From the NCBI GenBank assembly GCA_902799705.1, contig CADCBP010000002.1, positions 28,181 through 92,180 of the forward strand: a stretch of 64,000 nucleotides of DNA, written 5' to 3'. The notes under the pieces were generated by a model. It was not told the origin of the DNA. It saw only the letters and a list, made by a program, of their open reading frames with translations, and made no database searches. The translations under genes and the position numbers were made by a program. Positions 5,147-63,911 of this stretch are shown piece after piece (position 1 is the stretch's first letter; each line of letters starts with the position of its first letter). This DNA comes from an uncultured Bacteroidales bacterium. Its GTDB lineage: Bacteria > Bacteroidota > Bacteroidia > Bacteroidales > Paludibacteraceae.

Positions 5147-5932
5147 GTGAAGATAGCGCTTTTACAATATCCTATTGAGTGGGCTAATCCGCAGGCGAAC
5201 ATAGGCCTGTTGGACGAGCGTCTGCGGGCAGTAGCAGGCAGGGCTGACCTCGCCGTAGTGCCGGAGATGTTCAGTACCGGTTTTTGTCCGGACCGTCCGG
5301 GATTGGCGGAGCCATGGCCTGAGGGACCGACATGTCAGGCTCTTCAGCGCATGGCTGATACGTATGATCTGGCTATCGTTGGTTCGCTGATGGCGACGGA
5401 TAACGGCAGGCTGTGCAATCGCGGTTTCCTCTTCCGTCCCCATGACACTCCGCAGTACTACGACAAGCATCATCTGTATGCCAGCGGCGGGGAAGCGGAG
5501 TTCTTCACACCCGGCAATGAGCGGCCGGTCTTTGAGTACCGCGGCGTCAAGATACGTCTGGCTGTATGTTATGACCTGCGTTTCCCTGTGTGGCTGAGAC
5601 AAGACAAGAACAACCTGTACGACATACTCATTGTGGTGGCTTGTTGGCCTACCGTGCGTATCCAGTACTGGGATGCACTCTTGCCTGCCCGCGCCGCAGA
5701 GAACCATTGCTACGGTATCGGTGTGAACATGGTCGGGACGGACGGATTGCAGATGGATTATAACGGTCATTCGGCAGCCTATGACACCTGGCTCAAGGAC
5801 GTAGCGGGCTTTGAGGACTATGAAGCGGGAACGAAGATAGTGGATTTGTCTATAGAGAAACTAAGGCATTTCCGCGAAGTCTTACCGCAGTGGAAAGAAG
5901 CCGATGGATATGAGGTGAAAGTTGAAAGGTGA
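5147..5932 (+). CDS. carbon-nitrogen hydrolase family amidohydrolase (omega-amidase YafV-like)
   Basis: 261 aa with a GTG start. Nitrilase-superfamily Glu-Lys-Cys context: VPEMFSTGF, YDKHHLY, LAVCYDLRFP. The last 6 codons and the stop are encoded by heptamer repeat R1. Confidence 0.8.
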   Translation: MKIALLQYPIEWANPQANIGLLDERLRAVAGRADLAVVPEMFSTGFCPDRPGLAEPWPEGPTCQALQRMADTYDLAIVGSLMATDNGRLCNRGFLFRPHDTPQYYDKHHLYASGGEAEFFTPGNERPVFEYRGVKIRLAVCYDLRFPVWLRQDKNNLYDILIVVACWPTVRIQYWDALLPARAAENHCYGIGVNMVGTDGLQMDYNGHSAAYDTWLKDVAGFEDYEAGTKIVDLSIEKLRHFREVLPQWKEADGYEVKVER

Positions 5933-5943
5933 AAGTTGAAAGG
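5914..5943. repeat. tandem heptamer repeat (GGTGAAA GTTGAAA)x2 + partial
   Basis: ggtgaaagttgaaaggtgaaagttgaaagg read directly. It contains the stop codon (5930-5932) of the C-N hydrolase gene. Confidence 0.9.
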
Positions 5944-5962
5944 AACGAAGGGCTCATAATAC

Positions 5963-7678
5963 ATGGAGATTAATTGGCACATAAAAGAACGGACGCCGGA
6001 GGAAGAGGCAGCAGCCCAGCGACTGGCGACAGAACTGGATATCAGTCCTGTCGCAGCGCGTATTCTGGCAGACAGAGGATTGCGCACGGGCGCTGAAGCA
6101 CGGGCATATATCCGTCCATCGCTGGACAGTCTGCATGATCCTTTTCTGATGCGGGACATGGGAGCGGCGGTGGACAGGCTATGCCGCGCTATTGACAATA
6201 AGGAACGCATCATGGTGTACGGGGACTATGACGTGGATGGCACTACGGCTGTCGCGCTGATGTATTCGTTTTTGCGCACGCAGACAGACAACCTCGTCTA
6301 TTATATTCCCGACCGCTACACCGAAGGTTATGGTATCTCCACCAAAGGTATAGACACCGCCCAAGAAAAAGGATGTACGCTGGTTATTGCTTTGGATTGC
6401 GGCATTAAGGCGGTGGATAAGATCGCCTATGCCAATGAGAAGGGTATCGACTTCATTATTTGTGACCACCATACGCCGGGCGATGTTATACCGAAAGCAG
6501 TTGCAGTACTGAACATGAAGCGCGCAGACTGTCAGTATCCGTTCAAGGAACTGAGCGGGTGCGGTGTCGGTTTCAAGTTAGTGCAAGCCTACGCGCAACG
6601 CCGCGGAATAGATATGCAGGAGGTCTATCGTCTCTTGCCGCTACTGGCTATGAGTATTGCCAGTGACATTGTGCCCGTCACGGGCGAGAACCGCATCCTT
6701 GCTTTCTACGGTCTGCGTGCCCTCAATGCGCAGCCTTCCGTAGGCATACAGGCTATCATGCAGGTGGCAGGTATAGAAGGCAAGACCATCACGATCAGCG
6801 ACCTCGTGTATAAAATAGGTCCGCGTATCAACGCCGCGGGGCGTATCAAGAGCGGTGCGGAGGCCGTACGGTTGCTCATCACCAATGATGCGGAGGCGGC
6901 ATTGCGATTCGCACATGAGATCGATTCTTATAATCAGGACCGGCGTGATTATGACAGCAAGACGACGGATGAAGCGCTCGCACAGTTGGAAAAAGACCCG
7001 ATGAATCCGAGTAAATTCACTACGGTGGTCTATTCTCCGGAGTGGCATAAAGGGGTGGTTGGTATCGCAGCCAGCCGCCTGACGGAGACCTATTACCGTC
7101 CGACGATCGTACTGACGGCAGGCGAAGATGATATCATCAGCGGCAGTGCCCGTTCGGTCAGCGATTTCGATATCTATACGGCTATCGATTCATGCCGCGA
7201 CCTGCTTACTAATTTCGGAGGGCATAAGTTCGCTGCAGGACTGAGTATGCACAAGGCGGACTTGCCGGAATTCAAACGCCGCTTTGAGGAATATGTGGCA
7301 GCGCATATCACGCCCGAGCAGCAAGTGCCCACGCTGGAGGTGGAGGCGGAAGTGGAGTTGAGCGATATGAACTGGAAGATGTATAAGATCCTTCAGTGCC
7401 TGGAGCCGTTCGGTCCCGGGAATGAACGTCCGCTTTTCCTTTGCAGAAACCTGATTAATAACCGCAACACCCGTGCGGTGAGTGACGGCAAGCATCTGCA
7501 TCTTGATTTGACGGATTGTGTCGTGGCCATGGACGGTATTGCTTTCGGGCAAGGCGACAAAGCAGTGCACCTGCAAAACGGTAAAAGCATCGATGTATGC
7601 TTCTATTTAGAGGAGAACAGTTACCGCGGACGAACAACGCTACAGATGAATGCACAGGACGTGAAGTTAAATGATTAA
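5963..7678 (+). CDS. recJ: single-stranded-DNA-specific exonuclease RecJ
   Basis: 571 aa. DHH motifs VYGDYDVDGTTA, ALDCG, ICDHH, followed by a DHHA1 region (GGHKFAAG). Confidence 0.92.
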   Translation: MEINWHIKERTPEEEAAAQRLATELDISPVAARILADRGLRTGAEARAYIRPSLDSLHDPFLMRDMGAAVDRLCRAIDNKERIMVYGDYDVDGTTAVALMYSFLRTQTDNLVYYIPDRYTEGYGISTKGIDTAQEKGCTLVIALDCGIKAVDKIAYANEKGIDFIICDHHTPGDVIPKAVAVLNMKRADCQYPFKELSGCGVGFKLVQAYAQRRGIDMQEVYRLLPLLAMSIASDIVPVTGENRILAFYGLRALNAQPSVGIQAIMQVAGIEGKTITISDLVYKIGPRINAAGRIKSGAEAVRLLITNDAEAALRFAHEIDSYNQDRRDYDSKTTDEALAQLEKDPMNPSKFTTVVYSPEWHKGVVGIAASRLTETYYRPTIVLTAGEDDIISGSARSVSDFDIYTAIDSCRDLLTNFGGHKFAAGLSMHKADLPEFKRRFEEYVAAHITPEQQVPTLEVEAEVELSDMNWKMYKILQCLEPFGPGNERPLFLCRNLINNRNTRAVSDGKHLHLDLTDCVVAMDGIAFGQGDKAVHLQNGKSIDVCFYLEENSYRGRTTLQMNAQDVKLND

Positions 7679-7704
7679 ATAGTAAATGATCAAATCGTAA
7701 ATAG
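7667..7704. repeat. tandem 7-8 nt repeat with TAAAT core (5 units)
   Basis: ttaaatga ttaaatag taaatga tcaaatcg taaatag. It spans the recJ stop (7676-7678) and ends 6 nt before the tdk ATG. Confidence 0.75.
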
Positions 7705-7709
7705 TTTTT

Positions 7710-11279: not shown

Positions 11280-11748
11280 AGTGTTATTGCCCTTCGGGCG
11301 TGTATATTTGATAGAAAAAAACATATAAAACACGCTGACGCGCAAAAACATATAAAAAATATTGTATTAAATCAAAAACGCGGCGGTACGACCTTTCGGT
11401 CTAATGTTTATCGTCTATTAGTCGCTCGTGAGCAAGCTCCCAGCGCCTAATACCCGCTAATCATCACGTACAACTAAAAGTTGTCCGTCCGCCTTACAAA
11501 AATACGGGCTTTGCCCTTACAAAAAATCGTTTCGCTACGCTTCACTTTCAAAAATCCATTCGGCGCGTAGGGACATTGACGAGAGAGAGAATGAGGAAAT
11601 CAAAAATGTCCAAAAATCCATGCGGGACAAAGCCTTCAAAAGCTATAAAACTAAATAAAGCATTGCTGCCGAAGGTAAAAACATACAAAAACAATTTTTC
11701 AGTTGTCACAGCTACTGACAGTATATACAGTAGTATGGTCCGGGAATA

Positions 11749-13203
11749 ATGCATCGTGGTAAAATATACATAGTGCTAATAGCCTGTTTGGCAATGATAT
11801 CTTGTTCACCAAAGGCATTGCGGGAAGCGGAAGAAGTGGTGGCGCAGGCGGACAGTCTGCGTGCGGCGGGACAGATGTACGGCATTGATGCCGGCGACAG
11901 CGCAACCCTCGCGCAAGCCTATGAGACATTAGGCTACCTTTCACTTTTCAATTTTCATTTTTCACCTTCCTACGCCCACGCTTGCTATCATTACGGCCGT
12001 TTGTTGCGCGAGAAGGACAATCCCGTAGAGGCGGTGCAATGTTTTATTGATGCTTCGCACACTCGTACGCACGATTATCATATTCTCGGGCGCGTATATA
12101 GTAATATGGGCTCTATCTGCCATTTGGCAGGAGAATTTCCATTGTCTTACGACATGTACAAGAAATCTGCCGATATGTTCCTGCATAATGGGGATAGTAC
12201 GGCGTATTTTTATGCACTCAATGATATGGCATTTGAGCTGGCGGAAAATAGGGAATTCAAATTGGCATTATGTTTATTGGATAGTATAAAATTGAATTGC
12301 ACATCCTCCGCTGTTATTGCTAAAACAAATGAGACAAGAATCATATTATTTAAGCATACTCATCAGTACGATTCTATATTATATTATTTTGATTCTGTGC
12401 CTTCCTATATAAATAATGAGCCTCTGGTCTTAATTTCCAAGGCTCAAGCGTTTTGCTATCTCCAACAATATGATTCAGCAACCTGTTATGCTACTAGAAC
12501 GCTTCAGGCATCAAATGATTTATATGACCGTAATAATGCATTTTATATTTTAATTCATTGTGATAGTATACATAATGGGAATAGAGTATATAGTTTAAAT
12601 GCCGATCGATCGGACGTACAGAAGTTATTAGAAATTCGTCAAGGCAAATTGTCTCAAGCCGTTCAACTATTAGAACAAGATTTGCATCGCAAGCCGAATT
12701 TAGGGTGGTTGTATGCCGTATGTGCAACGCTTATTGTTGTCGGACTCGTTGTGTTCCTATACGTGTACAGAAAACGTCGCCAACGTTCGCTGCTCTCGCA
12801 ACAAGTCGAAGACTTAACCATTCAAAATAAAGAGGCGGAAGAGCGACAAGCAAAGCAATACCATGAACGCCTTCGTCAGATCCAAGAGAATTGCGAGGTA
12901 CTCGCATGTTCGGACAATGTGATGGATTCTATCCAATGGAAAAAATATGAAAACTTTTGCGAATTCATAAATGCTCACTTCTTCTTACTGGCAGATAAAC
13001 TTAAAGCTACCGGTTGTCTCAATGAAAAAGAAATACGCCTTTGCGTGCTCGTTTTGATCGGATCTTTATCTGATAAGCAGATGGCAAACATTCTATATTA
13101 TTCTTATAAATCCATTCGAAGCACGAAGCGAACTCTCGCGATAAAATTAGGAACCACCAGTGCAAATTTACGCTCGTTTTTGATGAAAAAAGCGGCAAAA
13201 TAA
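11749..13203 (+). CDS. membrane-anchored one-component regulator: lipoprotein signal, TPR-like sensor region, one TM, coiled coil, C-terminal LuxR-type HTH
   Basis: 484 aa. Lipobox LIACLAMISCS, TPR-like helices, TM LGWLYAVCATLIVVGLVVFLYVY, charged coiled coil, and a C-terminus LNEKEIRLCVLVLIGSLSDKQMANILYYSYKSIRSTKRTLAIKLG that matches the LuxR/GerE HTH pattern. Confidence 0.6.
   Translation: MHRGKIYIVLIACLAMISCSPKALREAEEVVAQADSLRAAGQMYGIDAGDSATLAQAYETLGYLSLFNFHFSPSYAHACYHYGRLLREKDNPVEAVQCFIDASHTRTHDYHILGRVYSNMGSICHLAGEFPLSYDMYKKSADMFLHNGDSTAYFYALNDMAFELAENREFKLALCLLDSIKLNCTSSAVIAKTNETRIILFKHTHQYDSILYYFDSVPSYINNEPLVLISKAQAFCYLQQYDSATCYATRTLQASNDLYDRNNAFYILIHCDSIHNGNRVYSLNADRSDVQKLLEIRQGKLSQAVQLLEQDLHRKPNLGWLYAVCATLIVVGLVVFLYVYRKRRQRSLLSQQVEDLTIQNKEAEERQAKQYHERLRQIQENCEVLACSDNVMDSIQWKKYENFCEFINAHFFLLADKLKATGCLNEKEIRLCVLVLIGSLSDKQMANILYYSYKSIRSTKRTLAIKLGTTSANLRSFLMKKAAK
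11940..11967. repeat. tandem heptamer repeat (TTCAnnT x4) inside the regulator CDS
   Basis: ttcactt ttcaatt ttcattt ttcacct read directly. It encodes LFNFHFSP in frame. Confidence 0.8.
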
Positions 13204-13327
13204 TATAACAGGAAGAGGAGATAAATCAAAAAAACTACATCGACATTCCACTAAAATCCTGTAAATCAGCAGTTTACACAAACACACAAAACTACACTCT
13301 TTTCTTGTAGAGGTGTAAAAAAAGCAG

Positions 13328-13335
13328 TAATTTTG
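13328..13335 (+). promoter_or_regulatory. -7 box TAATTTTG upstream of the secreted-protein operon
   Basis: cagTAATTTTGcgg lies about 80 nt upstream of the ATG at 13417. Confidence 0.5.
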
Positions 13336-13416
13336 CGGCGTCAAACAACAAAACGTTTGGCGTTGCTTCGTTTTTTATTGTAACACCATAATATAACCTA
13401 ATTAAAATTCAATCTT

Positions 13417-13812
13417 ATGAAAACAAAATTTTTTACTCTTGTATTGTCAGCACTCTTTTTGATGCCATGCGCACTTCGCGCAGAAGAAGTAGTTATCCAG
13501 TTGATGGAAGTAGTAACGATGAGTCCTATTCCGGGCGATGATCCATTGGATGGACCAGAACAATCAGGTAATAATCCTACGCGCCCAAATGATTTCCGCG
13601 CAACTGTTGACGGGCATTTCTTGCGTGTCACTAAACAAAATGCGAATATCACGTCTGCGCAGGTAGCCGTAGTGAACGCATCCAACGGAGGTTTGGTATT
13701 GAATCAAGTCATGACAGAATCCATGGAAGAGATCATTTCCAACAACGGCGTGTATGTACTGCATATCGAAACCGAAGGCGGTGCCATCGTCGGACAATTT
13801 ATTGTACAATAA
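13417..13812 (+). CDS. small secreted protein, DUF3244-like, with a T9SS-CTD-like beta-sandwich tail
   Basis: 131 aa. Signal peptide MKTKFFTLVLSALFLMPCALRA. The pattern ATVDGHFLRVT...AQVAVVNASNGGLV...NGVYVLHIETEGGAIVGQFIVQ matches my memory of the DUF3244/CTD pattern. No alignment was run. Confidence 0.5.
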   Translation: MKTKFFTLVLSALFLMPCALRAEEVVIQLMEVVTMSPIPGDDPLDGPEQSGNNPTRPNDFRATVDGHFLRVTKQNANITSAQVAVVNASNGGLVLNQVMTESMEEIISNNGVYVLHIETEGGAIVGQFIVQ

Positions 13813-13831
13813 TTTTAGTTAGTACATAACT

Positions 13832-15715
13832 ATGAAGAAGTCATTTTTGCTATATGCGTTTATACTTATAAATAGCTTGTCTTTGTGGGCTTATGACATC
13901 ACTACATCAGCATTCATTTATGGGCGCACAACATCCACGGCTACAAGTAATTACCCTTCTGGCTCTATTCCTATGGGTGTTCGACGTATTAACTTTAAAA
14001 ATCTCACTAATAATGTTGCACCAGAATTGGAAACAGCTCTAAGCGCTGCCTCTGGGATTTTTACGGATGCGATGTTGCGTGAAAGGATCGATATTGTTCC
14101 GTTGGATGTTACAATTTTGATGGACGATATCGGTCCAGATGAGAATGTTATATGCAAAGTGGAGATCAATTATGCAGATACTGTAGGTTTCCATCCTAAT
14201 TACCCAAGTTTTAGTTGGTATGAGACTTCATATGATGAGCGCGTCCTTTTACCAATGGCTATGATTAATCAAAGTCAACGCAAAAGTGGTGGTACGGCTA
14301 TGCGCATTACGCTCAGACCCAACGTTACATATCATTACGGGATAGATCCAGCTCAGGAAGGGGAATATGACGCGATTACTATTTTATTACGTGCATTAGC
14401 AATGGGTTGCGGAATACAGAGCACATTTAACCCTGAGACAAAGACAGTAGGATATGTTTCGGGCGAAAAGGTCTATGTTAATGCTTTTGATACGCAAATT
14501 TTTAATGAGGATCATGTATCTCTTGTCAGCGTTGCGGATGGAGATGTTGCTGCAGATGCTTTTTTTTCGGAGAAAGGCATCTATGCATATGGATATTTTG
14601 GCCCAGCAGACGAGAGGCAAGTGTACTTGCAAAACGAAAAAGCAATTGCTCCACTTTTCCCTTATTCTGAACTGACAGCTAATACAATTGTTCCAGATAA
14701 TTATACAGAAAATGAAATACAAGAAGACTTCTATGATTTATTAGAATCCTACCTGCCGCCTGAAACATCTATTCGCGTTGTTACTCCATATACGATGGCG
14801 TTACTCAGGCAATTAGGCTGGATGTATAATATTCCCGTAGGGCCCGGAGATGGATTCGCAGATTTATATAATTGCCAATTAATTTGCAATGATTCAACAT
14901 TATCACCAAACACATCGTATTCTATCGGTTTAAATCGCAGTTCAGTGGTTCTGGAAAATGCAGGTTTGCACTGCGAGTTACAAAGCATAGATAGTGTATA
15001 CGATATCGGTTCTTTTAGCAGTGGTTATATTGATGGATATACGTTTACATATAGTACCATTCCTGCCAATGTGCAATGGCGTCGTAACCCTATATCTAAA
15101 AATATCATAGGCCAAATTAGAGGGACTGCGAGTATGTTTGTCGATACATATAAATCACAAACAAAACTTTGTGACATTGAGATTCCTTATAGGCCGAACC
15201 ACCCGTTAGTCCAAAGGAATGAGAGCGCTTCGCAAGGTAACGTATTAATGAATCTATCGGTATTCGCCAATGGTAGCAACACTTATACGATGACGTATGT
15301 AGGCTGGGCTGATTCTATATCTCACACCGAAACTATTACGAAAGATGCTATTGACACAATTTTGATTTTACCTGCCACACAACTCTATGACTTTACCATA
15401 TATGGCACAAATTCGCAAGGTAATAGCGACTCATGCCATTTTACAATGGGTGCATCCGTTATACCTCCCTTATATTTGAATGTAAGCGTTCACGGAAGTA
15501 TCATGCAATATTACTTGGATTCCAATCATTCACAAAATATACCGTGTGTAAACATTAGTTCCGTGGTAGTAACTAACCCTCAAGGGTTGATATATATTAC
15601 ATCTAATGCTTCCCCAGGGGATGAAATAAATATTTCTTCTTTATCGCGTGGTTACTATATTATATCTGTAGTAGCTAATGGATCAACATATAGCAAAATA
15701 TTTTATAAGAGATAA
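13832..15715 (+). CDS. large secreted protein of unknown function with a T9SS C-terminal sorting-domain-like tail
   Basis: 627 aa. Signal peptide MKKSFLLYAFILINSLSLWA. C-terminus INISSLSRGYYIISVVANGSTYSKIFYKR. No HExxH or other catalytic motif was recognised. Confidence 0.55.
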   Translation: MKKSFLLYAFILINSLSLWAYDITTSAFIYGRTTSTATSNYPSGSIPMGVRRINFKNLTNNVAPELETALSAASGIFTDAMLRERIDIVPLDVTILMDDIGPDENVICKVEINYADTVGFHPNYPSFSWYETSYDERVLLPMAMINQSQRKSGGTAMRITLRPNVTYHYGIDPAQEGEYDAITILLRALAMGCGIQSTFNPETKTVGYVSGEKVYVNAFDTQIFNEDHVSLVSVADGDVAADAFFSEKGIYAYGYFGPADERQVYLQNEKAIAPLFPYSELTANTIVPDNYTENEIQEDFYDLLESYLPPETSIRVVTPYTMALLRQLGWMYNIPVGPGDGFADLYNCQLICNDSTLSPNTSYSIGLNRSSVVLENAGLHCELQSIDSVYDIGSFSSGYIDGYTFTYSTIPANVQWRRNPISKNIIGQIRGTASMFVDTYKSQTKLCDIEIPYRPNHPLVQRNESASQGNVLMNLSVFANGSNTYTMTYVGWADSISHTETITKDAIDTILILPATQLYDFTIYGTNSQGNSDSCHFTMGASVIPPLYLNVSVHGSIMQYYLDSNHSQNIPCVNISSVVVTNPQGLIYITSNASPGDEINISSLSRGYYIISVVANGSTYSKIFYKR

Positions 15716-15717
15716 CT

Positions 15718-16182
15718 ATGAAAAAAATATTCATCGCGATATTGTCGTGGGTGTGTTCGAGCACTCTTTGTTTCTCAATAGATGTGTCTCCTTGCGAAAC
15801 CTACCCTGACTTTTACCCAAGATGCATAGTTCGTGGGAATTGTATGAAGTACTATTTATTTGAAGGGAAAGACAAATTAGAAATAGTTGCCGATAGTGTA
15901 TGGATAAACAATCAGGAAGGGGAGACAATCATGATTGTTCGCGAGCGACAAGGAGAACAAGTTGATATTTCTTCTTTATATAGGGGTTATTATATATGCA
16001 ATTTTCAAATAGGAGATTGTATTGGTGCAGATATGTTTTATAATCGCAAAAATCCCGAGGAAGATATACTCACTCCGGATAAAGAACTCATTCCCGCATC
16101 GAAACTCCTCCATGACGGACAAGTGTTAATTCTCAAAGAAAACAAAAAATATACTATAGACGGCAAAGTAATAGAATTATGA
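15718..16182 (+). CDS. small Cys-rich secreted protein with a CTD-like segment
   Basis: 154 aa. Signal peptide MKKIFIAILSWVCSSTLC. It has VDISSLYRGYYICNFQIG (compare the preceding protein) and the tail KLLHDGQVLILKENKKYTIDGKVIEL. The start lies 2 nt after the previous stop. Confidence 0.5.
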   Translation: MKKIFIAILSWVCSSTLCFSIDVSPCETYPDFYPRCIVRGNCMKYYLFEGKDKLEIVADSVWINNQEGETIMIVRERQGEQVDISSLYRGYYICNFQIGDCIGADMFYNRKNPEEDILTPDKELIPASKLLHDGQVLILKENKKYTIDGKVIEL

Positions 16183-16207
16183 AGTCTTTTCACAAGTTCT
16201 CTTGTAG

Positions 16208-16846: not shown

Positions 16847-16868
16847 TAATGCATAAAATGACATAGTT

Positions 16869-17882: not shown

Positions 17883-17910
17883 TACAATAACCTTTTAAAT
17901 TTTTACTGTT

Positions 17911-20340: not shown

Positions 20341-20377
20341 TTTCCTTCATAAATTTGCATATTTTAAAAATTCATAT

Positions 20378-20385
20378 TAATTTTG
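20378..20385 (+). promoter_or_regulatory. -7 box TAATTTTG just upstream of the OMP gene
   Basis: atTAATTTTGcagg lies 9 nt before the ATG at 20394, which implies a very short leader. Confidence 0.4.
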
Positions 20386-20393
20386 CAGGCGAA

Positions 20394-21287: not shown

Positions 21288-21324
21288 ACAGAGGTAGAAG
21301 AAACTCATAAAAATTCCGAAAAAA

Positions 21325-21357
21325 TCCCACATAAATTTGCATATGTGGGATTTTTTG
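21325..21357 (+). terminator. rho-independent terminator
   Basis: TCCCACATAaatttgcaTATGTGGGAtttttt read directly: a 9-bp stem plus a T-run. Confidence 0.8.
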
Positions 21358-21424
21358 TGTACGACACGCATAACAAAATCATAAAAAAGTTTTAAAAATA
21401 CTTGCGTATATCAACAAAAATGTA

Positions 21425-21432
21425 TATCTTTG
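21425..21432 (+). promoter_or_regulatory. -7 box TATCTTTG upstream of abiEi
   Basis: gtaTATCTTTGcagc lies 22 nt before the ATG at 21454. Confidence 0.5.
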
Positions 21433-21453
21433 CAGCGAATTTGAAACAATGTT

Positions 21454-25303: not shown

Positions 25304-25333
25304 TGTTGATAAGAAAATAAACATAGATAAACA

Positions 25334-25455: not shown

Positions 25456-25501
25456 CAATAAACAGAAATAAATTTTTATCAGACACTAATAATATTATAA
25501 T

Positions 25502-53011: not shown

Positions 53012-56000
53012 TGAAACGTGCATTGATCATCACCGGTATCACCTTGGGTTCCTTGCTGCTGGTACTTGTTGCGGCTGTGCTCATCGTGATATACGTAGTT
53101 TTCACTCCGGCCCGATTGACACCTATCGCGCGTCAGGCTGCGGCGGAGTATATCACCTGTGAGCATGAGATAGGGGAGGTGGACCTCACGTTCTTCTCTA
53201 CCTTCCCGCGTTTTGGCTTGCGTGCCGACGGGTTGCTGTTGATCAATCCTAAAGCCGGCAGTCAGAACGATACGGTCGTGTCTGCCCCGCGATTCACGGT
53301 AACGGTGAACCTCATGGAGTTTCTGAACAACAAAAACCTGGTCATTCATGAGGCGATATTGGATGACGCATCGGTGAATTTCTTCATTGCGCCGGACGGA
53401 ACGACAAACCTCACGGATGTCTTCGTTACCTCGCCGGACACCACCGATACTACCGCTTTCTCCTTGCCTTTCGATGAGCTGCGCGTAGATGGTCTGCATA
53501 TCAAAGCCCGCGCTATCACTTTCGTCGATGCTAAGGATACCATCGAGGCCGCGTTGGGCATTACCGAACTGAGTGCGAAAGCGGAGAGTTGGGACGACAT
53601 GTTGATTGCACTGGAGGCCAGCGATGTATGTGCAAACCTCAAAGGTGATACCTATGCAGACTCCCTCCATGTGGAAATTTTGGCGCCTCTGGCGATGAAT
53701 CTTGACGACATGCGTTTTGCGGTGGATGGAGCCAGACTTGCGGTAAACGATTTTAACTTGAGACTCGAAGGAGAAGCGACTATTGGTGACAGCATTGCCT
53801 TGGATGCCAAAATCGAGACGGATAAATGGCAGATAAAGCCCCTTCTGGCACTTGTGCCGGAGAAATTCACCAAGTCGCTCTCGGACCTCGATGTGGACGG
53901 TACGGTTCAACTGGAAGCAACAGCACAAGGCTATTATGCCGATTCCGTCATGCCGCATATTCAGGCGCACCTCATCCTGAAAGACGGTGAAGGTAAATAC
54001 AAACCGCTGCCGTACGACTTGCGTGATATGAGACTGGATGCCGAGGCGGACTTGCGAATGAATAAAGGCGAGCAATCCAGCGTGACGATACGCACGCTCG
54101 AGGCGAAGACCAAGAAAAGCGCATTGACAGCCAAGGGTACAGTGGAAAACCTCTTGGGCGACATGCTGATGGATTTACATCTGACGCTGGATGCCAACCT
54201 GCCGGACTTCGCGTATTTCTATCCTGAGAAAATGACGCTTGGCGGTCGCGCGAAAGGAAAAGCTGATGCGCGGATACGCCTGGATGATCTCACGGCTATG
54301 CGTCTGGACAAAGGACGTATTGACGCGGACCTCAACCTGTCCGATATCCGCTATGCGACGGATAGCATGGAGGCGGAACTGCCGATGACGCACGCCCGTA
54401 TTCAACTGCCGAATCCCAAACCTTCCAAACCCACACTCAAATGGGCACGTATCGATATGGAGACCGATAAAGTGGATTTTACAATGGCAATGCCATTGAC
54501 CGCAGCACTCAAAGCGTCTGCTATCCAACTGGAGACCGGCAATGTGCTTTCCGAGAATCCGGTGCTCTATGCTGCCGTAGGACTGCAGTCTGACCGGCCG
54601 GTTGAAGTAGAGATGGATTCGATGGGCGGGACGGTGGATGCACCGAATCTGAAAGCATACGTGGAGTACAACACCAAGTCCGAGACAGGCTTGGAGAAGG
54701 CGCAGGCGGATATCAGTTTCGACGGACTCGACGGATTCTTCCAGGATATCAAAGCCGACCTGAAAGCATCGCAACTGAGCGCAACCATGAATGCCGGCAA
54801 GTCGCTGAAAGCCAAACTCAAAACGCAGGCACTCAATGCACAAATGGGGGAAGAATTGTTTGCGAAGACAGGTGATTTGGCGCTGGACGCCTCCGCTCGC
54901 TATAATAGCAAGGGTGAAAACGCACTCCTCAAATGGAATCCGCGTCTGAAGATCAACCTCAAGAACGGAGAAATGAATATGCCGGAACGTCTACCCGAAC
55001 CCGTCTATATACCTTCGATCGAATTCAGTTATTCGAATAGGGAGATGAATATAGCCGACGCACGGGTGGAATTGGGCAATTCGGACCTGAACCTCAAAGG
55101 GAACGTGCGCAATATAGGCAAATGGTTCCGACACAAAGCTGTTCTCGAAGGACAACTCGATATCGTCTCCGACCATTGCGATGCCAACCAACTCCTCGCG
55201 TGGTTCAGTGCCGATCAAGGCTCGGAAGAAAAATCAGAATCCTCCGAAAAATCAGAAATCACCAATCAACAATCACAAATCAACAATGACGCCGACAAGG
55301 CGTCTGACCCTTTCTTGGTTCCTACGGATGTGGACCTGGCGCTCAACACACACATGCGCGAGGTAGAGATATTCAATCAGGTGGCGAAAGACTTGAAAGG
55401 CGGGCTGTATGTCAAGGACGGCAAACTGATTCTCGATGAGATGGGCTTTGTATGCCGTGCTGCCAAACTGCAACTCACGGCGATTTATCGTACGCCGCGT
55501 AAGAACCACCTCTATCTGGGTTTCGACTACCACATGATTGATGTTGATATAGACGAACTGCTGACAATGATTCCGAACCTCGAGCAGATGGTTCCGATGC
55601 TCAGCTCTTTCAAGGGTGCAGCGCAGTTCCACTTGGCGGCAGAGACCTACCTCACCAGCCAGTACCAACCGAAGATCAGCACCCTTCGCGGCGCCGCTTC
55701 GCTTACCGGTAAAGACCTCGTAGTCATGGATAGCAAGACCTTCTCGAAAATAAGCAAACTGCTGCTCTTCAAGAAGAAGACGGAGAATAAGATCGATTCA
55801 ATCAATGCCGAACTGACTGTTTATAAGGACCAGATTGACGTCTATCCGCTCTGCGTGCAGATGGATAACTACATGGTGGCTCTCGGAGGACGGCATAAGA
55901 CGGACATGACCTTCGACTACGATATCAATGTACTCAGCCCGATTTACCTCGGCGTGCATGTAGGAGGAAACATGGACGACTTGAAGATCAAACTGGCGAA

Positions 56001-56115: not shown

Positions 56116-56120
56116 CCCCC

Positions 56121-56148
56121 AAATAACAAATCACAAATGACACACAAC
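56121..56148. repeat. tandem heptamer repeat AAATAAC AAATCAC AAATGAC ACACAAC
   Basis: Read directly, in the intergenic region after the AsmA-like stop. The third unit supplies the dcp ATG (56137). Confidence 0.8.
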
Positions 56149-58266
56149 AAATTATTCCTTTTAGGAATTGCTGCTATGACATTATTGGCTTGCAACCACC
56201 CCCAATCCAACCCGTTGTTGGATCAGCCGAACACCCAGTTTGGTGTACCGGCGTTTGACCAAGTGAAAATTGAGCATTACCTGCCTGCTTTTGAAGAAGC
56301 TATCAAACAGAATAAAGCGGAGGTCGATGCCATAGTGAATAACGAAGCCGAACCGACGTTCGAGAACACCATCGTGGCGCTCGACCGTTCCGGTCTGCTC
56401 TTGGACCGCGTGGTTGGCGTATTCTTTAATGTCCTCGAGGCGGACGGAAACGATGAGATGAATGAGATCGCAGAGAAAGTGAGTCCGATGCTGAGCGAAC
56501 TGAGCGACGGTATCATCCTGAATGACAAACTGTTCCAGCGTGTGAAGTTCGTCTATGAGCAGCGTGACCAGTTGGGTCTCAATCCCGAGCAGATGCGTCT
56601 GTTGACGGAGACCTACAAGAACTTTGCGGACAACGGAGCGAACCTGCCGGAGGACAAGAAAGAGCGTCTCAAAGAGATCAACCAGGAACTCGGACTGCTC
56701 TCTCTCAAGTTTGGCAACAACGTGGTGGCGGAGACCAATTCCTGCCAGCGTTTCATCACCGATGAAGCGGAACTGGCGGGGCTGCCCGAGAGCGCCAAAG
56801 CCGCTGCTGCAGAAGAAGCAGAGGCTGCCGGCCATCCGGGAGAATGGCTCTTCACGCCCAAACGTACCTCTTTCACGCCGGTGCTCCAGTACTGCGAGAA
56901 CCGCGAACTGCGCAAACAGCTTCTTATGGACTATACCACCCGCGCAAACCATGACAACGAGTTTGATAACAAAGCCGTCATCATCCGCGAGATGGAATTG
57001 CGTATCGAGCGTGCCAACTTGTTCGGTTATGACAACCCTGCCGACTATATCCTCGCAGACTGCATGGCGAAGAATCATCAGACGGTTGATACTTTCCTCC
57101 AGTCCGTTTGGGTGCCGTCTCTCGAAGCTGCCAAACGCGAAGCTGCCGAGTTACAGAAGATGATGGATGCAGAGAAAATGGCGCAAGACCCGCACACCGA
57201 TGATCAGGTTCTGCTCCAACCTTGGGACTGGTGGTTCTATGCCGAGAAACTGCGTAAGGCGAAATATGACCTCGACGAAGAGGAGATCAAACCCTATTTC
57301 GAACAATCCAATGTCCGCAAAGGTGCGTTCGGCGTAGCTACCAAACTGTATGGCCTCCAATTCGAGAAATTAGAGGACATGCCGGTGTATAACCCCGAAG
57401 TAGAGGTCTTTAAGGTCACCGAAGCGGACGGCTCGTTGGTTGGTATTCTTTACACCGATTATTTCCCGCGTGCGGGTAAGCGTCCGGGTGCATGGATGAA
57501 CCAGATCCTGCCGCAGTATATCGATGCGGAAGGCGTAGATCATCGTCCGGTAGTTATCAATGTGGGTAACTTCAACAAGCCGACTGCAGGCAATCCGTCC
57601 CTTCTCTCGATGGATGACGTAGAGACCCTCTTCCATGAGTTCGGCCATGCGCTGCACGGACTGCTGTCCAAAGCGCATTACAAATCGCTCAGCGGTACGA
57701 ATACCCCTCGCGACTTCGTGGAACTGCCTTCGCAGTTCATGGAGAACTATGCGTATGAACCGGAAGTGCTCAAGACCTATGCTTTCCATTACCAAACAGG
57801 CGAGGTGATTCCGGATGAACTGATCGAGAAAATCAATGCGGCCGGTAAGTTCAACCAGGGATTCGTGACGACGGAACTGCTCTCTGCTTCTATCCTCGAT
57901 ATGGATTTCCATGAGTTGACGACTGCGGAAGGCCTCGATGTCAATGCCTTCGAGAAACAGAGCATGGAGAAGATGGGTATGATTGATGAAATCATCGTGC
58001 GTTATCGTCCGACGTTCTACAATCATATCTTTACCACGGGTTATGAGGCTGGCTACTACAGCTATACATGGGCTGCGGTGCTCGATGCAGACGCATTCGC
58101 GGCGTTCAAGGAGACCGGAAATCTCTTCGATGCGCAGACAGCCGCTCGTTTCCGTCACTTGCTGGAGCAAGGCGGTACACGCGATGCACAGGAACTCTAC
58201 CTGGAGTTCCGCGGCAAAGAGGCAGATCCCCAAAATCTTCTGCGCCGCAAAGGATTTATAGACTGA
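56137..58266 (+). CDS. dcp: M3-family peptidyl-dipeptidase (Dcp-like), lipoprotein
   Basis: 709 aa. Lipobox TLLAC and Zn motif LFHEFGHALHGLLS. Confidence 0.9.
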   Translation: MTHNKLFLLGIAAMTLLACNHPQSNPLLDQPNTQFGVPAFDQVKIEHYLPAFEEAIKQNKAEVDAIVNNEAEPTFENTIVALDRSGLLLDRVVGVFFNVLEADGNDEMNEIAEKVSPMLSELSDGIILNDKLFQRVKFVYEQRDQLGLNPEQMRLLTETYKNFADNGANLPEDKKERLKEINQELGLLSLKFGNNVVAETNSCQRFITDEAELAGLPESAKAAAAEEAEAAGHPGEWLFTPKRTSFTPVLQYCENRELRKQLLMDYTTRANHDNEFDNKAVIIREMELRIERANLFGYDNPADYILADCMAKNHQTVDTFLQSVWVPSLEAAKREAAELQKMMDAEKMAQDPHTDDQVLLQPWDWWFYAEKLRKAKYDLDEEEIKPYFEQSNVRKGAFGVATKLYGLQFEKLEDMPVYNPEVEVFKVTEADGSLVGILYTDYFPRAGKRPGAWMNQILPQYIDAEGVDHRPVVINVGNFNKPTAGNPSLLSMDDVETLFHEFGHALHGLLSKAHYKSLSGTNTPRDFVELPSQFMENYAYEPEVLKTYAFHYQTGEVIPDELIEKINAAGKFNQGFVTTELLSASILDMDFHELTTAEGLDVNAFEKQSMEKMGMIDEIIVRYRPTFYNHIFTTGYEAGYYSYTWAAVLDADAFAAFKETGNLFDAQTAARFRHLLEQGGTRDAQELYLEFRGKEADPQNLLRRKGFID

Positions 58267-58290
58267 TTTCTGATCTCTGATTTCTGTGAA
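58263..58290. repeat. tandem heptamer repeat CTGATTT CTGATCT CTGATTT CTGTGAA
   Basis: Read directly. The first unit holds the dcp stop TGA (58264-58266) and the last unit holds the GTG start (58286) of the next ORF. TGA recurs every 7 nt, so all three frames are hit. Confidence 0.9.
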
Positions 58291-58807
58291 ACGTAGCACT
58301 CAAACACTTCTATACCATCTGTTGCCGGCAGTCTTTTGGCTGCTGGCAATAGGCGGTAGTTTGGTTCCTGCGTTGCCTTCTCTAAACACTAAACTCTCAA
58401 CACTCAACTATTATAGCGGCTATTGGGTTGCCGCCATAGTATTAATTGTTATCCTTTTTATCGGGCGTATCAAGCGTCATGCGTCATCTGTAGAGGAATG
58501 TTTCCTAATGGCCATATTCTTAGGCATCGCTTCCTATTGGCTGCCTACGGTGGTTTTTCTGACGATACCCGTTTGGGCATATCTCATCTACCAAAATCTC
58601 TTTAGCGGCCGCTCGTTTCTGGCTACTTTCCTCGGCTATGCTGTGGTAGCTATATGGGCTGCTGTATTCATATTCTTCGGATGGATAGCAAACCCTTGGG
58701 CGCATTTCTTTGCATTAGAAAACGCCCTCGGGTGGATACCCTTGGGCGCTATCTTACTGGCGTGGCTCGCTTCTACCATTGTACGACAAATCCTGCGTGC
58801 ACGTTGA
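58286..58807 (+). CDS. hypothetical multi-pass membrane protein
   Basis: 173 aa with a GTG start and about 5 hydrophobic helices. No family was recognised. Confidence 0.5.
   Translation: MKRSTQTLLYHLLPAVFWLLAIGGSLVPALPSLNTKLSTLNYYSGYWVAAIVLIVILFIGRIKRHASSVEECFLMAIFLGIASYWLPTVVFLTIPVWAYLIYQNLFSGRSFLATFLGYAVVAIWAAVFIFFGWIANPWAHFFALENALGWIPLGAILLAWLASTIVRQILRAR
58382..58409. repeat. tandem heptamer repeat CTAAACA CTAAACT CTCAACA CTCAACT inside the membrane-protein ORF
   Basis: Read directly. It encodes LNTKLSTLN in frame. Its first 13 nt equal the reverse complement of part of the 27041-27061 repeat. Confidence 0.85.
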
Positions 58808-61026: not shown

Positions 61027-61050
61027 AAATCTTAAATCTTAAATCACCAA
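61027..61050. repeat. tandem heptamer repeat AAATCTT x2, AAATCAC, CAATG
   Basis: Read directly, in the intergenic region between the OMP stop and the riboswitch 5' end. Confidence 0.7.
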
Positions 61051-61062: not shown

Positions 61063-61824
61063 CTAGAACCTATAGCAGAAAGAAACGAACCATCCCCATT
61101 CCGCCATGTGGCGGTTGTCTAACCCTCGCGGGCGGGCAAGGTTGTTCAATCCGAAGTCATATCCGGCTTGCAGACGGTAGCGGTCCCATTCCAAACCACC
61201 GCCGAGCCCCCATTGGATATTCGCGCGGAGGAGTTCATCGGCAAAGCGGTCGTACGGACTCGTCGGAACGCCGTTGGTCTCCAGCCATGTCTGCGCTGCG
61301 GTACTCAGGTGCGTCTGCAGGTAGTCGTATTCTGCCAGACCGATATGCAACTGCGGACCGGTGTAGAAGAACAGACGTAACTGCTTCCACAGCGTAATCG
61401 TGTAGTATGCGCGCACGGGGATAGTCAGATTATGCTCCAGCACCCGATGGGTGATATACTCCGTTTGTGTCGTCTGCGGATTCATGCTGCGCCAGTGTTG
61501 CTCGTTCTTGCCGTAAGTCAGCGTGTACAGCAGACCTGTCTGCAAACTGAAATGATACGGCAGCAGGAAATCGAAGGTAGCACCTACGCGTACGCCGTGC
61601 AGGAACATATCCGGATAACTCAGGTTCCGCGTACGCTGCTGATGCTGGGCGTAGCCCACCTCCAGACGATACTCCACGCCAAACTTGTAACTCTCTTCCC
61701 GTTGTTTGGCTGTGGGGTCGAAGAAGGTGTTATCCTCTATCTGCATCGCCGGCTTGCGTACGTCATCCGCGTACGCGCTCACCCCCAACGCACCGATTAG
61801 TAGTATAAGAAAAACTCTTTTCAT
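61063..61824 (-). CDS. outer-membrane beta-barrel protein
   Basis: 253 aa. Signal peptide MKRVFLILLIGALGVSAYA, alternating beta-strand pattern, and a terminal aromatic ...FVSFCYRF. Confidence 0.65.
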   Translation of the reverse strand: MKRVFLILLIGALGVSAYADDVRKPAMQIEDNTFFDPTAKQREESYKFGVEYRLEVGYAQHQQRTRNLSYPDMFLHGVRVGATFDFLLPYHFSLQTGLLYTLTYGKNEQHWRSMNPQTTQTEYITHRVLEHNLTIPVRAYYTITLWKQLRLFFYTGPQLHIGLAEYDYLQTHLSTAAQTWLETNGVPTSPYDRFADELLRANIQWGLGGGLEWDRYRLQAGYDFGLNNLARPRGLDNRHMAEWGWFVSFCYRF

Positions 61825-61868
61825 TCTTTCATTCTTTCATTCTTTCACTCTTTCATTCTTTCACCTTA
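61821..61868. repeat. tandem octamer repeat (TCATTCTT x3, TCACTCTT, TCATTCTT, TCACCTTA)
   Basis: Read directly. It fills the pepO-stop to OMP-start junction on the minus strand. The minus strand reads as a chain of overlapping ATG/GTG-AAA-GA(A/G)-TGA mini-ORFs ending in the real ATG at 61824. Confidence 0.9.
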
Positions 61869-61871
61869 CCC

Positions 61872-63911
61872 TTACCAAATAGAAACTCGGTTTTCAGGTG
61901 CGATATACAGCGGGCTCTCCGGAGTCACGTTCCATGCCTCATACCATGCGCCGATCTGCGGCAGCGCGCCGTTGACGCGCCAGCGGCCCAGGGAGTGAGG
62001 ATCGCTCTTCGTGCGGTTCAGGATCTCTTCCGGACGGATATTGCCTGCCCATACATTAGCGTAAGCCAGGAAGAAACGCTGCTGCGGCGTGAAGCCGTCA
62101 CGGGTCTGCAGACGCTCTGACTCCGGCTTCGACTCCTCGTTGAGTGTGAATGCTAAGAACGATACTTGCAGACCGCCGTGGTCAGCGATGTTCTCGCCGA
62201 GCGTGAATGCACCGTTGGCATGTACGCCCGGAGCTACCTCGATCTTGTTGAACGCCTCTTCCATCACTTTCGTGCGCGCATCGAAAGCCGCTTTGTCTTC
62301 GGCTGTCCACCAGTTGACCATGTTGCCGTCTTTGTCGAACTGGCAACCCTGATCGTCGAATCCGTGAGTCATCTCATGACCGATCACAACGCCGATGGCG
62401 CCGTAGTTGAACGCATCGTCCGCATTCATGTCAAAGAACGGATACTGGAGAATTCCGGCGGGGAAGCAGATCTCGTTGCTCGAGGGGTTATAGTAAGCGT
62501 TCACCGTCTGCGGCGTCATGTACCATTTTTTCTTGTCCACCGGCTTGCCGAGGAAACTCAGGCTATAGTCCAACTCAAAACGCGCTGCGCGCTGGAGGTT
62601 GGCATAGTAGGTGTCTTCCGGGTTAATCTCTAATTTGCTGTAGTCGCGCCATTCGTCCGGATAACCGATCTTGATGGTCATCGCGTTCAGTTTCTCGAGC
62701 GCTTTGTCTTTCGTCTCGCGGGACATCCAGGCTAAGTTCTCGATACGGATACCGAGGGCTTTCTGCAGGTTCTTCACGAGCGCCAACATACGCTCTTTGT
62801 TCTCCTCGGGGAAGTATTTCTTTACGTACATCTGACCTACTGCCTCGCCGAGCGTACCGTTCACGGTACCTACCGCGCGTTTCCACAGCGGACTCGGTTC
62901 TTCGCGACCGGACAGCACGCGACCGTAGAAATCGAACGAAGCCATGTATATCTCTGTCGTCAGATACGAAGCCGCACCATCGATTACCTGCCATGTGAAC
63001 AGGGTCTTCAGGTCCTCAAGCGGTTCCTCGTCTAACATACGACCGGCTTCCTGCAAATGCGGGATCTGTCCGATAGAGAGGCTGTCGAGATCATGGATAC
63101 CGGCTGCCTCGAAATAGACTTTCCAATCCACTTGCGGAACGAGTTGCTGCAACTCATCCACGCTCATCTTGTTATAGTTCGCCTGCGGGTCGCGTAACTC
63201 TACGTTGCTGTACGCTGCCTTCGCCAGACGCGTCTCAAGACGCAAAACCGTCTGCGCTTTGTCCGCTGCATTCTCAAATCCGAAGAGACCGAACAGTTTC
63301 TCTACATACGCTACGTATGCATCGCGGATCTTCTTGGTTTGCTCGTCTTCATCGAGGTAATATTCTTTCTCGCCCAAAGCGAATCCGGCTTGGTATTCGT
63401 TGAGAATATTCATCGAACTGTTCATCGCGTCGGCATCGACATACATCGCCCAGAGCTGGAAATCCATTGCTCCGCCGAGCACCTTGCTCAACTCCGAACG
63501 GGTGCCGATTCCTTCGATTTCATCGAGGATTTTCTGTACAGGAGCAATACCTTCTGCATCGCGGCGTGCGGTATCCATAGCGAGATTGTACATGTCGCCG
63601 ATCTTCTGCTCCACGGAGCCTTCTTTCACCTTTAACCTTTCACCTTTCACCTCTTCTGCAATCTCCTGAATCAAACCGTTCACTTGCTCGAGGTTCTGCA
63701 ATCCGAGTTTGTCGAACGATCCGAAACGACTGTATTCCGGTGTCAGAGGGTTATTGGCCATCCATCCGCCACAGGCGAACTGATAGAAGTCGTTTTGTGC
63801 CACGGCGGTGGTATCTAAGTTGTTGAGATCGATACCTGTCGTCTGTTGTTTGGTTGTACATGCTGTTGTCATCATTGCAATCGCTGCAAGCGTAAAAATA
63901 ATTTTTTTCAT
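61872..63911 (-). CDS. pepO: M13-family metalloendopeptidase (PepO / endothelin-converting-enzyme-like), lipoprotein
   Basis: 679 aa. Lipobox MMTTAC, Zn motif VIGHEMTHGFD, ENIADHGG, and a C-terminal W. Confidence 0.92.
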   Translation of the reverse strand: MKKIIFTLAAIAMMTTACTTKQQTTGIDLNNLDTTAVAQNDFYQFACGGWMANNPLTPEYSRFGSFDKLGLQNLEQVNGLIQEIAEEVKGERLKVKEGSVEQKIGDMYNLAMDTARRDAEGIAPVQKILDEIEGIGTRSELSKVLGGAMDFQLWAMYVDADAMNSSMNILNEYQAGFALGEKEYYLDEDEQTKKIRDAYVAYVEKLFGLFGFENAADKAQTVLRLETRLAKAAYSNVELRDPQANYNKMSVDELQQLVPQVDWKVYFEAAGIHDLDSLSIGQIPHLQEAGRMLDEEPLEDLKTLFTWQVIDGAASYLTTEIYMASFDFYGRVLSGREEPSPLWKRAVGTVNGTLGEAVGQMYVKKYFPEENKERMLALVKNLQKALGIRIENLAWMSRETKDKALEKLNAMTIKIGYPDEWRDYSKLEINPEDTYYANLQRAARFELDYSLSFLGKPVDKKKWYMTPQTVNAYYNPSSNEICFPAGILQYPFFDMNADDAFNYGAIGVVIGHEMTHGFDDQGCQFDKDGNMVNWWTAEDKAAFDARTKVMEEAFNKIEVAPGVHANGAFTLGENIADHGGLQVSFLAFTLNEESKPESERLQTRDGFTPQQRFFLAYANVWAGNIRPEEILNRTKSDPHSLGRWRVNGALPQIGAWYEAWNVTPESPLYIAPENRVSIW
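63624..63651. repeat. tandem heptamer repeat TTTCACC TTTAACC TTTCACC TTTCACC inside pepO
   Basis: Read directly. The minus strand (GGTGAAA family) encodes VKGERLKVK in frame. Confidence 0.9.

Follow-up and report, generated by a model that had tools for sequence, protein, structure and literature searches.

A 64-kb stretch of the genome of an uncultured Bacteroidales bacterium assigned to the Paludibacteraceae (contig CADCBP010000002.1 of assembly GCA_902799705.1; hereafter the window, with positions counted from its first letter) carries short tandem arrays, mostly of 7-nucleotide (nt) units, at the junctions between its genes and inside conserved enzymes. Counting arrays with a period of 5-20 nt and at least 2.8 copies in Tandem Repeats Finder (TRF; score floor 30), the criterion used throughout, we found 20 short-period arrays, 14 of them heptamers. 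Their periods are 7, 8, 9 and 11 nt and they run to 2.8-5.6 copies; the letters were also read directly. Dinucleotide shuffles of the window (n = 100) yielded 0.53 ± 0.70 arrays and 0.06 heptamers, and codon-preserving shuffles that kept gene codons and spacer bases (n = 100) yielded 1.0 ± 0.96 arrays and 0.12 heptamers, with maxima of 4 and 1. The density thus exceeds a codon-preserving null, the comparison proposed in a preliminary description of this DNA that had been made from its letters alone. For comparison, a 50-kb stretch of Escherichia coli K-12 held a single array, of period 12, and the DNA around PorX in Porphyromonas gingivalis, P. pogonae, P. macacae and one Parabacteroides (86 kb in total) held five arrays and no heptamers.

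Such arrays are typical of the whole clade of rumen and gut Paludibacteraceae. The relatives of PorX found on one-genome-per-species GTDB contigs all belong to rumen or gut metagenome-assembled genomes (MAGs) classified as Paludibacteraceae or Bacteroidales, the closest at 95% protein identity. We sampled 80 loci from species genomes, centred on PorX, and another 80 from rumen metagenomes, centred on the M3 peptidase gene (related loci are cited below by L-numbers); with the window, these amount to 2.59 Mb and contain 936 arrays. Median array density per 10 kb was 3.7 in the species loci and 3.2 in the metagenome loci, with a range of 0-9.25, largely for one syntenic region; per-species counts were over-dispersed (index of dispersion 2.6), and density was uncorrelated with GC content across loci (Spearman rho -0.02). 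Period 7 accounts for 518 of the 936 arrays, followed by periods 11 (103), 8 (92) and 9 (74). Perfect runs, which can be counted without any score threshold, likewise place periods 7 and 11 above neighbouring periods: 41 perfect runs of at least three copies have period 7 against 6 with period 8, and there are 39 perfect two-copy 11-mers where our own arithmetic (0.25^11 x 1.5 Mb) gives an expectation of about 0.4. The observed array load is real, far beyond chance and enriched relative to other Bacteroidales.

Many arrays of the window, whose ORF (open reading frame) identities were taken from Pfam and neighbouring gene calls, lie where one gene gives way to the next; they are given here on the plus strand unless stated otherwise. 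About four GTGAAAG/TTGAAAG units at 5913-5943 contain the TGA stop of a CN-hydrolase gene (5147-5932), and recJ starts 20 nt downstream. The TAA stop of recJ falls in turn within an array at 7667-7705, made of some four to five units of 7-8 nt (TAAATGA/TAAATAG), 4 nt past whose end lies the ATG of the thymidine kinase gene. Three GTTTAGG units at 27041-27061 begin 3 nt past the iPGM stop. Around the Obg gene, an 8-mer array of about 5.5 copies (CTAACCCG/CTAATCCT; 34084-34129) contains the adenylate kinase TAA stop and ends 1 nt before the Obg ATG, while 4.3 copies of AAAGTTG/AAAGGTG at 35314-35343 overlap the Obg TAA stop and provide the GTG start of a ClC channel gene. Between the AsmA-like and M3 peptidase genes, CAAATNA repeated 4.7 times (56120-56152) contains the peptidase ATG; 3.4 copies of CTGATYT at 58263-58286 contain the peptidase TGA stop and reach the first base of the GTG (58286-58288) of the following ORF. 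On the minus strand, which is here the sense strand, 5.6 copies of the 8-mer GAATGAAA (61814-61864) lie between pepO and ORF 61063-61824 and provide the ATG of the latter. Two further arrays are intergenic: 2.9 copies of the 11-mer CCGACGGTCAG at 22353-22384, from a unit family also present in IleRS, and 2.7 copies of AAATCTT at 61027-61045, downstream of the minus-strand gene 61063-61824. Each of the eight tight junction arrays is flanked by genes that run in one direction. The upstream stop falls within five of them (CN-hydrolase, RecJ, adenylate kinase, Obg and M3 peptidase) and the downstream start within four (GTG for the ClC channel and ORF 58286, ATG for the M3 peptidase and ORF 61063-61824), in agreement with the preliminary description, which had arrays supplying stops and starts at gene boundaries.

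Ten arrays are internal to proteins, and, as also described previously, none breaks its frame, each lying in an uninterrupted ORF. PorX and IleRS have two each. Those of PorX are 3.9 perfect copies of TCAGCAG at 29858-29884 (residues 41-50, ISSQQSAVSI) and 4.6 copies of TCAGCMG at 30358-30389 (residues 208-218, SAVSSQPSAVR); those of IleRS are an 11-mer, CCGACRGTCAA, in some three to four copies at 51403-51448 (residues 744-759) and 4.0 perfect copies of CTTTCAA at 52173-52200 (residues 1001-1010, SFNFQLSTFN). The RluD-like gene carries 2.5 copies of a 14-nt unit that consists of two diverged heptamers (AGCAWTC AGAAGTC; 29104-29138; peptide EHSEVSNQKSAI), and Sua5/TsaC, on the minus strand, 2.4 copies of an 18-nt unit (38881-38923; peptide ASDYSENSDYSEHSD). 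In the AsmA-like protein, 9-nt units are followed by 7-nt units (AAATCAM; 55227-55287; peptide EEKSESSEKSEITNQQSQINN), and in the M13 peptidase PepO 4.3 copies of GTGAAAG are read on the minus strand (63623-63652; EVKGERLKVKE). The remaining two lie in ORFs without a Pfam match: TTTCAAT in 3.7 copies at 11939-11964 (ORF 11749-13203; LSLFNFHFS) and CTMAACA/CTCAACW in about four copies at 58380-58409 (ORF 58286-58807; SLNTKLSTLNY). TRF and direct reading recover every locus listed in the preliminary description except 44049, which consists of two imperfect 14-nt copies and falls below a TRF score of 30; the arrays at 22353 and 61027 were absent from that list. Its figure of three to six tandem units holds broadly, the arrays at 29104 and 38881 being shorter.

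Reading frame, stop codons and protein structure filter the arrays by selection. Among internal coding arrays of the clade, 261 have period 7, against 47 with period 6, 36 with period 9 and 18 with period 12, and units that are multiples of three are not favoured. The arrays inside proteins occupy segments of variable length. Both PorX arrays lie at positions of length and sequence variation among 38 orthologues, and make the protein 2 and 4 residues longer there than the solved P. gingivalis PorX. An AlphaFold model of PorX (mean predicted local distance difference test score, pLDDT, of 73) places the first in the alpha2-beta3 loop of the receiver domain and the second in a coil linker with pLDDT below 50. 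The IleRS 11-mer array at 51403 corresponds to an insertion of 12-14 residues relative to the solved IleRS 8c8v; at 52173 the segment is as long as in 8c8v, and some sister species have the shorter GQFTLLDYTLV. The preliminary description had proposed to test whether the repeat-encoded peptides are insertions. They are at IleRS 51403 and at both PorX sites; at IleRS 52173 there is no net insertion relative to the distant solved enzyme, so that the refuting condition named in that description partly holds at this one site. The AsmA-like segment (55227-55287) is hypervariable among relatives. In PepO, a GTTAAAG unit stands precisely where an in-frame TGA would otherwise fall, and arrays of the GAAAG family in the coding sense are mostly TCGAAAG, GCGAAAG or GGAAAG variants, which avoid TGA. 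PorX also has a third length-variable segment at residues 165-180 (window 30229-30276; LAGLEQEQAGRAG), six residues longer than in P. gingivalis PorX, whose DNA shows no tandem repeat.

Turnover between species is rapid. From one species to another, an orthologous site may be empty, may hold an identical array, or may hold one in which the period is kept and the unit differs. At least eight heptamer families occupy the rluD site across species, and some species have an array-free 11-nt segment there. Relatives carry CTTTCAA, CTTTCGA, ACTRTCA, ATTACMA or CTTACAC arrays at IleRS 52173; at IleRS 51403, relatives either lack an array or have one that is always of period 11, with a diverged unit around an ACGA/CGAC core. 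At the adenylate kinase/Obg junction, species have either one of several unrelated TAA-containing 8-mers or a spacer only a few bases long. At the Sua5/TsaC site (38881), L001 and L068 have a shorter, unrelated segment, and at 58380, within ORF 58286-58807, L083 carries three copies of CTTTCAA. Arrays are homogeneous inside, all four IleRS units being CTTTCAA in some species and CTTTCGA in others, and this homogeneity combined with divergence between species is the mark of concerted evolution by repeated expansion and contraction.

At junctions, copy number differs as well between close relatives (about 93-96% DNA identity), by one to several units. The array at 35314 has about four units in the window, five in L068 and seven in L001; that at 27041 has three units in the window and five in L001; and that at 34084 has about 5.5 units in the window, about three in L068 and none in L001. 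Opposite the 5.6 8-mer copies at 61814, L082 has about 15 heptamer units (GTGAAAG/ATGAAAG). At 58263, L081 is longer by 21 nt. Inside genes, close relatives differ by multiples of 21 nt, and a step of exactly this length separates L021 from L029 within PorX. For 27 distinct filled arrays at 12 sites (97 raw pairs) an empty counterpart was found. Within genes, filled and empty alleles differ by 18, 21, 24, 27 or 42 nt, which keeps the frame and is not always a multiple of 7, and several of the differences are replacements.

We consider it probable, though well short of assured, that the arrays are mostly neutral products of lineage-enriched slippage and template switching, filtered by selection and without a dedicated function. 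Their source would be a bias of replication or repair, by which DNA slips and is duplicated in tandem, usually in a register of 7 nt and more rarely of 8 or 11 nt, and an occasional template switch onto an existing array would seed or overwrite another permissive site. Selection would act as a filter only. The surviving arrays are found where their harm is small, namely in short co-directional spacers, where they may carry stop and start codons, and as in-frame, stop-free segments in protein loops and linkers. A lineage-specific slippage or insertion process was among the possibilities raised in the preliminary description, and it fits arrays that are found clade-wide, differ between species at one site and are rare in other Bacteroidales.

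Several points weigh against this explanation. It points to no particular enzyme or repair defect that would account for the preference for 7, 8 and 11 nt. A four-unit array cannot come from one copy by a single slip, so multi-unit events or template switching must be assumed; additionally, out-of-frame intermediates would be lethal in IleRS or TsaC, so plain slippage alone is insufficient. At rluD, a resident segment of 12 nt stands opposite an array of 30 nt between flanks that are 95% identical, which is replacement and not addition, and replacement alleles could equally arise by recombination between co-resident species. The clade-wide placement statistics presented below rest on our own crude ORF calls. 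Finally, 77% of arrays within 40 nt before a start have a stop-bearing unit, against some 45-50% expected from our own composition estimate, which leaves some probability for a function.

The repertoire of units is clearly non-random. Allowing rotation and reverse complementation, the heptamer arrays of the window form 12 pairs with at most one mismatch, against 1.9 for random 7-mers of the window (P<0.001). The 11-mer CCGACGGTCAA is common to the arrays at 22353, which is intergenic, and at 51403, within IleRS; across species it forms arrays at seven or more non-orthologous sites. In the clade, 397 unit-site pairs use 157 canonical heptamers where about 330 would be expected, and 54 units occur at three or more sites (7.9 expected). 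The largest family has a GAAAG core (AGTTGAAAG, AGTCGAAAG, GGTGAAAG) and occupies at least 40 sites in both orientations. Units also tend to be shared within a genome: an identical unit was found in 31 of 613 same-genome pairs more than 1 kb apart, against 12.2 ± 3.4 upon permutation among genomes of similar GC content, with an additional excess at less than 1 kb. In the window, PorX site 2 uses TCAGCMG units, as does PorX site 1 about 500 nt upstream.

Among close relatives, the second PorX site of L001 (10622-10659) and L068 (220-257) holds a CTAAYCCY array unrelated to that of the window, despite flanks that are 91-95% identical. It has a 12-15-mer in common with the adenylate kinase/Obg junction array 3.7 kb downstream (3957-3979 in L068). 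The match is a 15-mer in L001, and its 12-mer core was found nowhere else in the sequence examined. Judged by this match, array sequence seems to have been copied between these two non-homologous sites.

A tentative alternative, to which we assign a low probability, is that the arrays do not grow by local slippage but arrive complete, put in place by a dedicated template-directed activity or by a very small mobile element. Examples would be nuclease-triggered templated repair, or a reverse transcriptase or polymerase that adds repeats from templates particular to each genome. At DNA breaks or stalled forks, such an activity might write arrays some four units long, in either orientation and in essential genes too, from a small genome-specific master set (for example GAAAGKN, CAGCMGT and CCGACGGTCAA), and might overwrite existing arrays. 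Heptamer and 11-mer units that recur at many unrelated sites in both orientations, and unit repertoires enriched within genomes, would both be expected of it. So would arrays that displace resident sequence, among them the intragenic array that matches a junction array 3.7 kb away, and in-frame heptamer arrays in essential genes, which require several units at once. However, 69 oriented GAAAG-family arrays showed no conserved flanks, target-site duplications or terminal inverted repeats, only direct repeats; 157 canonical heptamers are in use, rather than one or a few templates; the period is kept at a site while the unit drifts, as expected of in-place evolution; and no candidate gene was seen among the genes of the window. 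If template-directed writing did occur, it would be a candidate cause of the heptamer families of cyanobacteria, Xanthomonas and Beggiatoaceae.

Array lengths were also considered as a record of insertion in whole blocks. Modulo 3, the lengths of arrays in genes are distributed 71/53/61 once orthologous duplicates are removed (by site and length), which is not significant, whereas the raw counts had shown peaks at 27 and 30 nt; this, too, speaks against insertion. A preference for four units, as in Xanthomonas, was likewise rejected: perfect runs of two to five copies fall steadily (289, 27, 12 and 2), and the mode near four units in TRF output is probably an effect of the score threshold.

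Somewhat more doubtful still is a function for the arrays at junctions, as A-rich, unstructured leaders with stops in all frames, through which adjacent genes would be uncoupled or tuned in their translation, Shine-Dalgarno pairing not being used in this phylum. Clade-wide, spacers together with the outermost 45 nt of genes hold 14.3 arrays per 10 kb and gene interiors 1.93, a 7.4-fold difference, and relaxed constraint alone predicts such an enrichment. Period 7 has 257 of the 504 junction arrays and 261 of the 432 internal ones. A stop in a unit of 7 or 8 nt recurs in every frame, and the excess of stop-bearing units before starts noted above, together with the arrays that provide actual stop and start codons, speaks in favour of this function; a like proposal has been made for TAACTGA repeats (PMC4679880). 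The sense strand of arrays within 40 nt upstream of starts is rich in A and poor in C (A 0.41, T 0.30, G 0.16, C 0.13), but array-free upstream regions have nearly the same composition (A 0.37, T 0.30, G 0.17, C 0.17). Moreover, many sister species have an ATGA overlap without an array, or unrelated units, at the same junctions, and the same unit families occur inside genes in both orientations. The preliminary description's suggestion of functional junction elements is thus not supported as far as a dedicated signal is concerned.

Two junctions may nevertheless have changed in their coupling. At Obg/ClC and M3 peptidase/next ORF, the overlap of stop and start in many sister species is the 4-nt ATGA, whereas in the window a heptamer array separates the genes (35313-35341 and 58264-58288) and the downstream gene starts with GTG. 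Translational coupling of these two pairs may have been lost in the window's genome.

At the level of the strain the arrays are stable. Database records show this exact PorX protein on 17 contigs, and the five independent records that we compared (ENA assemblies and a Logan assembly of one read run) are 100.000% identical to the window over 3.6-21.6 kb. They cover eight arrays, all identical to those of the window, and at the level of consensus assemblies, where minor read-level variants are invisible, no copy-number change within the strain was seen. A scan of rumen metagenomes gave no contig nearer than 95% protein identity. A comparison of positions 1-1320 of one assembly, L163, with about 24200-25500 of the window shows a strain-level structural variant: L163 matches the window at 100% from the iPGM gene onward and has a different left flank, with an HNH_3 gene instead of the CNNM and SmpB genes.

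This identity bears directly on the suggestion, also made in the preliminary description, that the arrays are hypermutable contingency tracts whose copy number toggles genes, which we regard as very improbable. Junction copy numbers do differ between close species, and phase-variable heptanucleotide repeats are described for other bacteria (PMC2651432). Yet the five same-strain assemblies agree over eight arrays and the copy-number differences are between species only. Arrays have just 3-6 units, the internal ones lie in genes such as those for IleRS, RluD, TsaC, PorX and peptidases, housekeeping genes that the gain or loss of a single unit would throw out of frame, and the affected genes show no enrichment for surface or restriction-modification functions. 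That the tracts are artefacts of assembly or sequencing, an outcome that the preliminary description had named as refuting, can be dismissed with near certainty; the metagenome-assembled origin of the window is the only ground for it, and no evidence was found. The five identical ENA and Logan records show that the tracts are real, arrays of this kind recur in over 150 independent MAGs and metagenome contigs drawn from many studies, and the frame is preserved through every internal array.

Other features of the window deserve mention. A low-GC island at 11300-22300 (GC 0.38-0.39 against about 0.51) includes two identified genes: that at 17911-20340 encodes an S8 peptidase ending in a Por_Secre_tail, that at 21454-22212 an AbiEi_4 protein. 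It has no short-period array between 12.0 and 22.3 kb, where about three would be expected (Poisson P about 0.04), which offers a weak hint that arrays accumulate with residence time in the genome. An Rfam and ARAGORN scan of the window placed no known RNA family at the arrays, its sole match being a tRNA-Pro(CGG) at 1184-1257 on the minus strand. On the same strand, a 75-residue lipoprotein-like ORF at 27127-27354 (a signal peptide, then LSC) has an Ala/Pro/Glu-rich linker encoded by a period-6/15 repeat at 27222-27270, and its version in L021 is much longer. A period-3 (GAT)n tract at 38238-38273 encodes the hydrophobic run IISIIFFFIIII of a Bac_transf sugar transferase on the minus strand; this tract is ordinary and unconnected with the heptamer arrays.

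Reports of tandem repeats dominated by heptamers go back to 1990 and come from scattered bacterial lineages; we know of no accepted mechanism for them. The statement of the preliminary description that no known class of element predicts these arrays was too strong, as comparable heptamers are known in Xanthomonas, Nostoc and Beggiatoaceae (PMC4692102, PMC4679880). Rehm et al. (2015) reported dispersed heptamer arrays, about 100 of GGGAATC in Xanthomonas and others of GGGGAYT in Nostoc. Most of these lie no more than 50 bp from the end of an ORF and separate co-directional ORFs, and some overlap stops; the intragenic share is 7-11% in Xanthomonas and about 32% in Nostoc, and length and sequence differ between close species (PMC4692102). 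The arrays described here are likewise dispersed tandem heptamers at co-directional ORF ends, with stop overlap and variation between close species. They differ in the coexistence of many families with unrelated units, in their Bacteroidota host, and in that 432 of the 936 clade arrays lie inside genes, universally conserved enzymes included. Units here are not G-rich, so G-quadruplex formation cannot apply.

A second precedent is the TAACTGA repeat of marine Beggiatoaceae, some cyanobacteria and five Bacteroidetes including Paludibacter propionicigenes (MacGregor 2015; PMC4679880). It occurs in 2-6 copies just before start codons; in forward orientation it provides stops in all frames and overlaps upstream stops, and reversed it lies within ORFs and encodes 7-residue peptide repeats, its mechanism of spread not being evident (PMC4679880). 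Direct heptamer repeats near starts, overlap with stops and occurrence within ORFs are shared with our arrays, whose units are unlike TAACTGA in being diverse and which lie in cores or loops of housekeeping enzymes, not at protein ends alone. Only 11 arrays in 2.6 Mb are of NNACTGA type. TAACTGA, GGGAATC, GGGGATT, GGGGACT, CCCCAGT and CAACAGT gave no array and no exact two-copy run in the same 2.6 Mb, and TTGGTCA gave two arrays; three of these units are those of the short tandemly repeated repetitive (STRR) sequences of Calothrix. In the clade, units are dispersed (at least 40 sites for the GAAAG core, at least seven for CCGACGGTCAA), yet 157 canonical heptamers coexist; 64 kb of the window's own genome were examined.

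The closest general description is that of long simple sequence repeats (LSSR) by Mrazek et al. (2007), whose survey, as represented in two later papers (PMC4679880, PMC4692102), found lineages rich in repeats of 5-11-nt units with heptanucleotides most abundant. By those accounts, polymerase slippage was proposed, with a possible link to the DNA segment held by the polymerase, multiples of three were favoured inside genes, and no Bacteroidales are named among the top genomes (PMC4679880, PMC4692102). As far as these accounts go, head-to-tail units of 5-11 nt, an excess over composition and the prevalence of heptamers are common to LSSR and our arrays, in which period 7 is, in contrast, dominant inside genes as well; the survey is older than the MAGs used here. 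With the contingency loci of Haemophilus and Neisseria our arrays share short tandem repeats and copy-number change by slippage; here, in contrast, units are few, the sites are housekeeping genes and operon junctions, the arrays are identical in five assemblies of the strain, and no on/off logic is apparent.

Microhomology-mediated template switching deletes sequence and inserts a short segment copied, sometimes repeatedly, from a near or distant template. By analogy, it would account for the birth of arrays with several units, the replacement of resident sequence and the occurrence of common units at different sites. We know of no demonstration of such a pathway in Bacteroidota.

A full-text search of the literature found no report of such arrays for Paludibacteraceae or rumen Bacteroidales. 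We suggest that the clade adds a new lineage, some of whose traits are new as well, to a known but mechanistically unsolved class of heptamer repeats of the LSSR/STRR type. The traits that are new relative to known heptamer systems are the many unit families, the common periods of 8 and 11 nt and a share of nearly half of the arrays inside genes.

These findings make the clade a comparative system, with hundreds of species-level genomes that have a common gene order and an array load from 0 to 9 per 10 kb. Orthologous sites allow the birth, replacement and copy-number change of arrays to be read directly, and array load could be correlated with replication and repair gene content. It is also evident that repeat units out of register with codons can settle in the loops of universally conserved enzymes, IleRS, RluD and TsaC among them, and can provide functional stops and starts. 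In practice, gene callers and protein alignments applied to rumen MAGs will routinely encounter such repeat segments. On our reading of the arrays as mostly neutral products, short low-complexity peptide insertions in these genomes would be mutational debris and not adaptive motifs.

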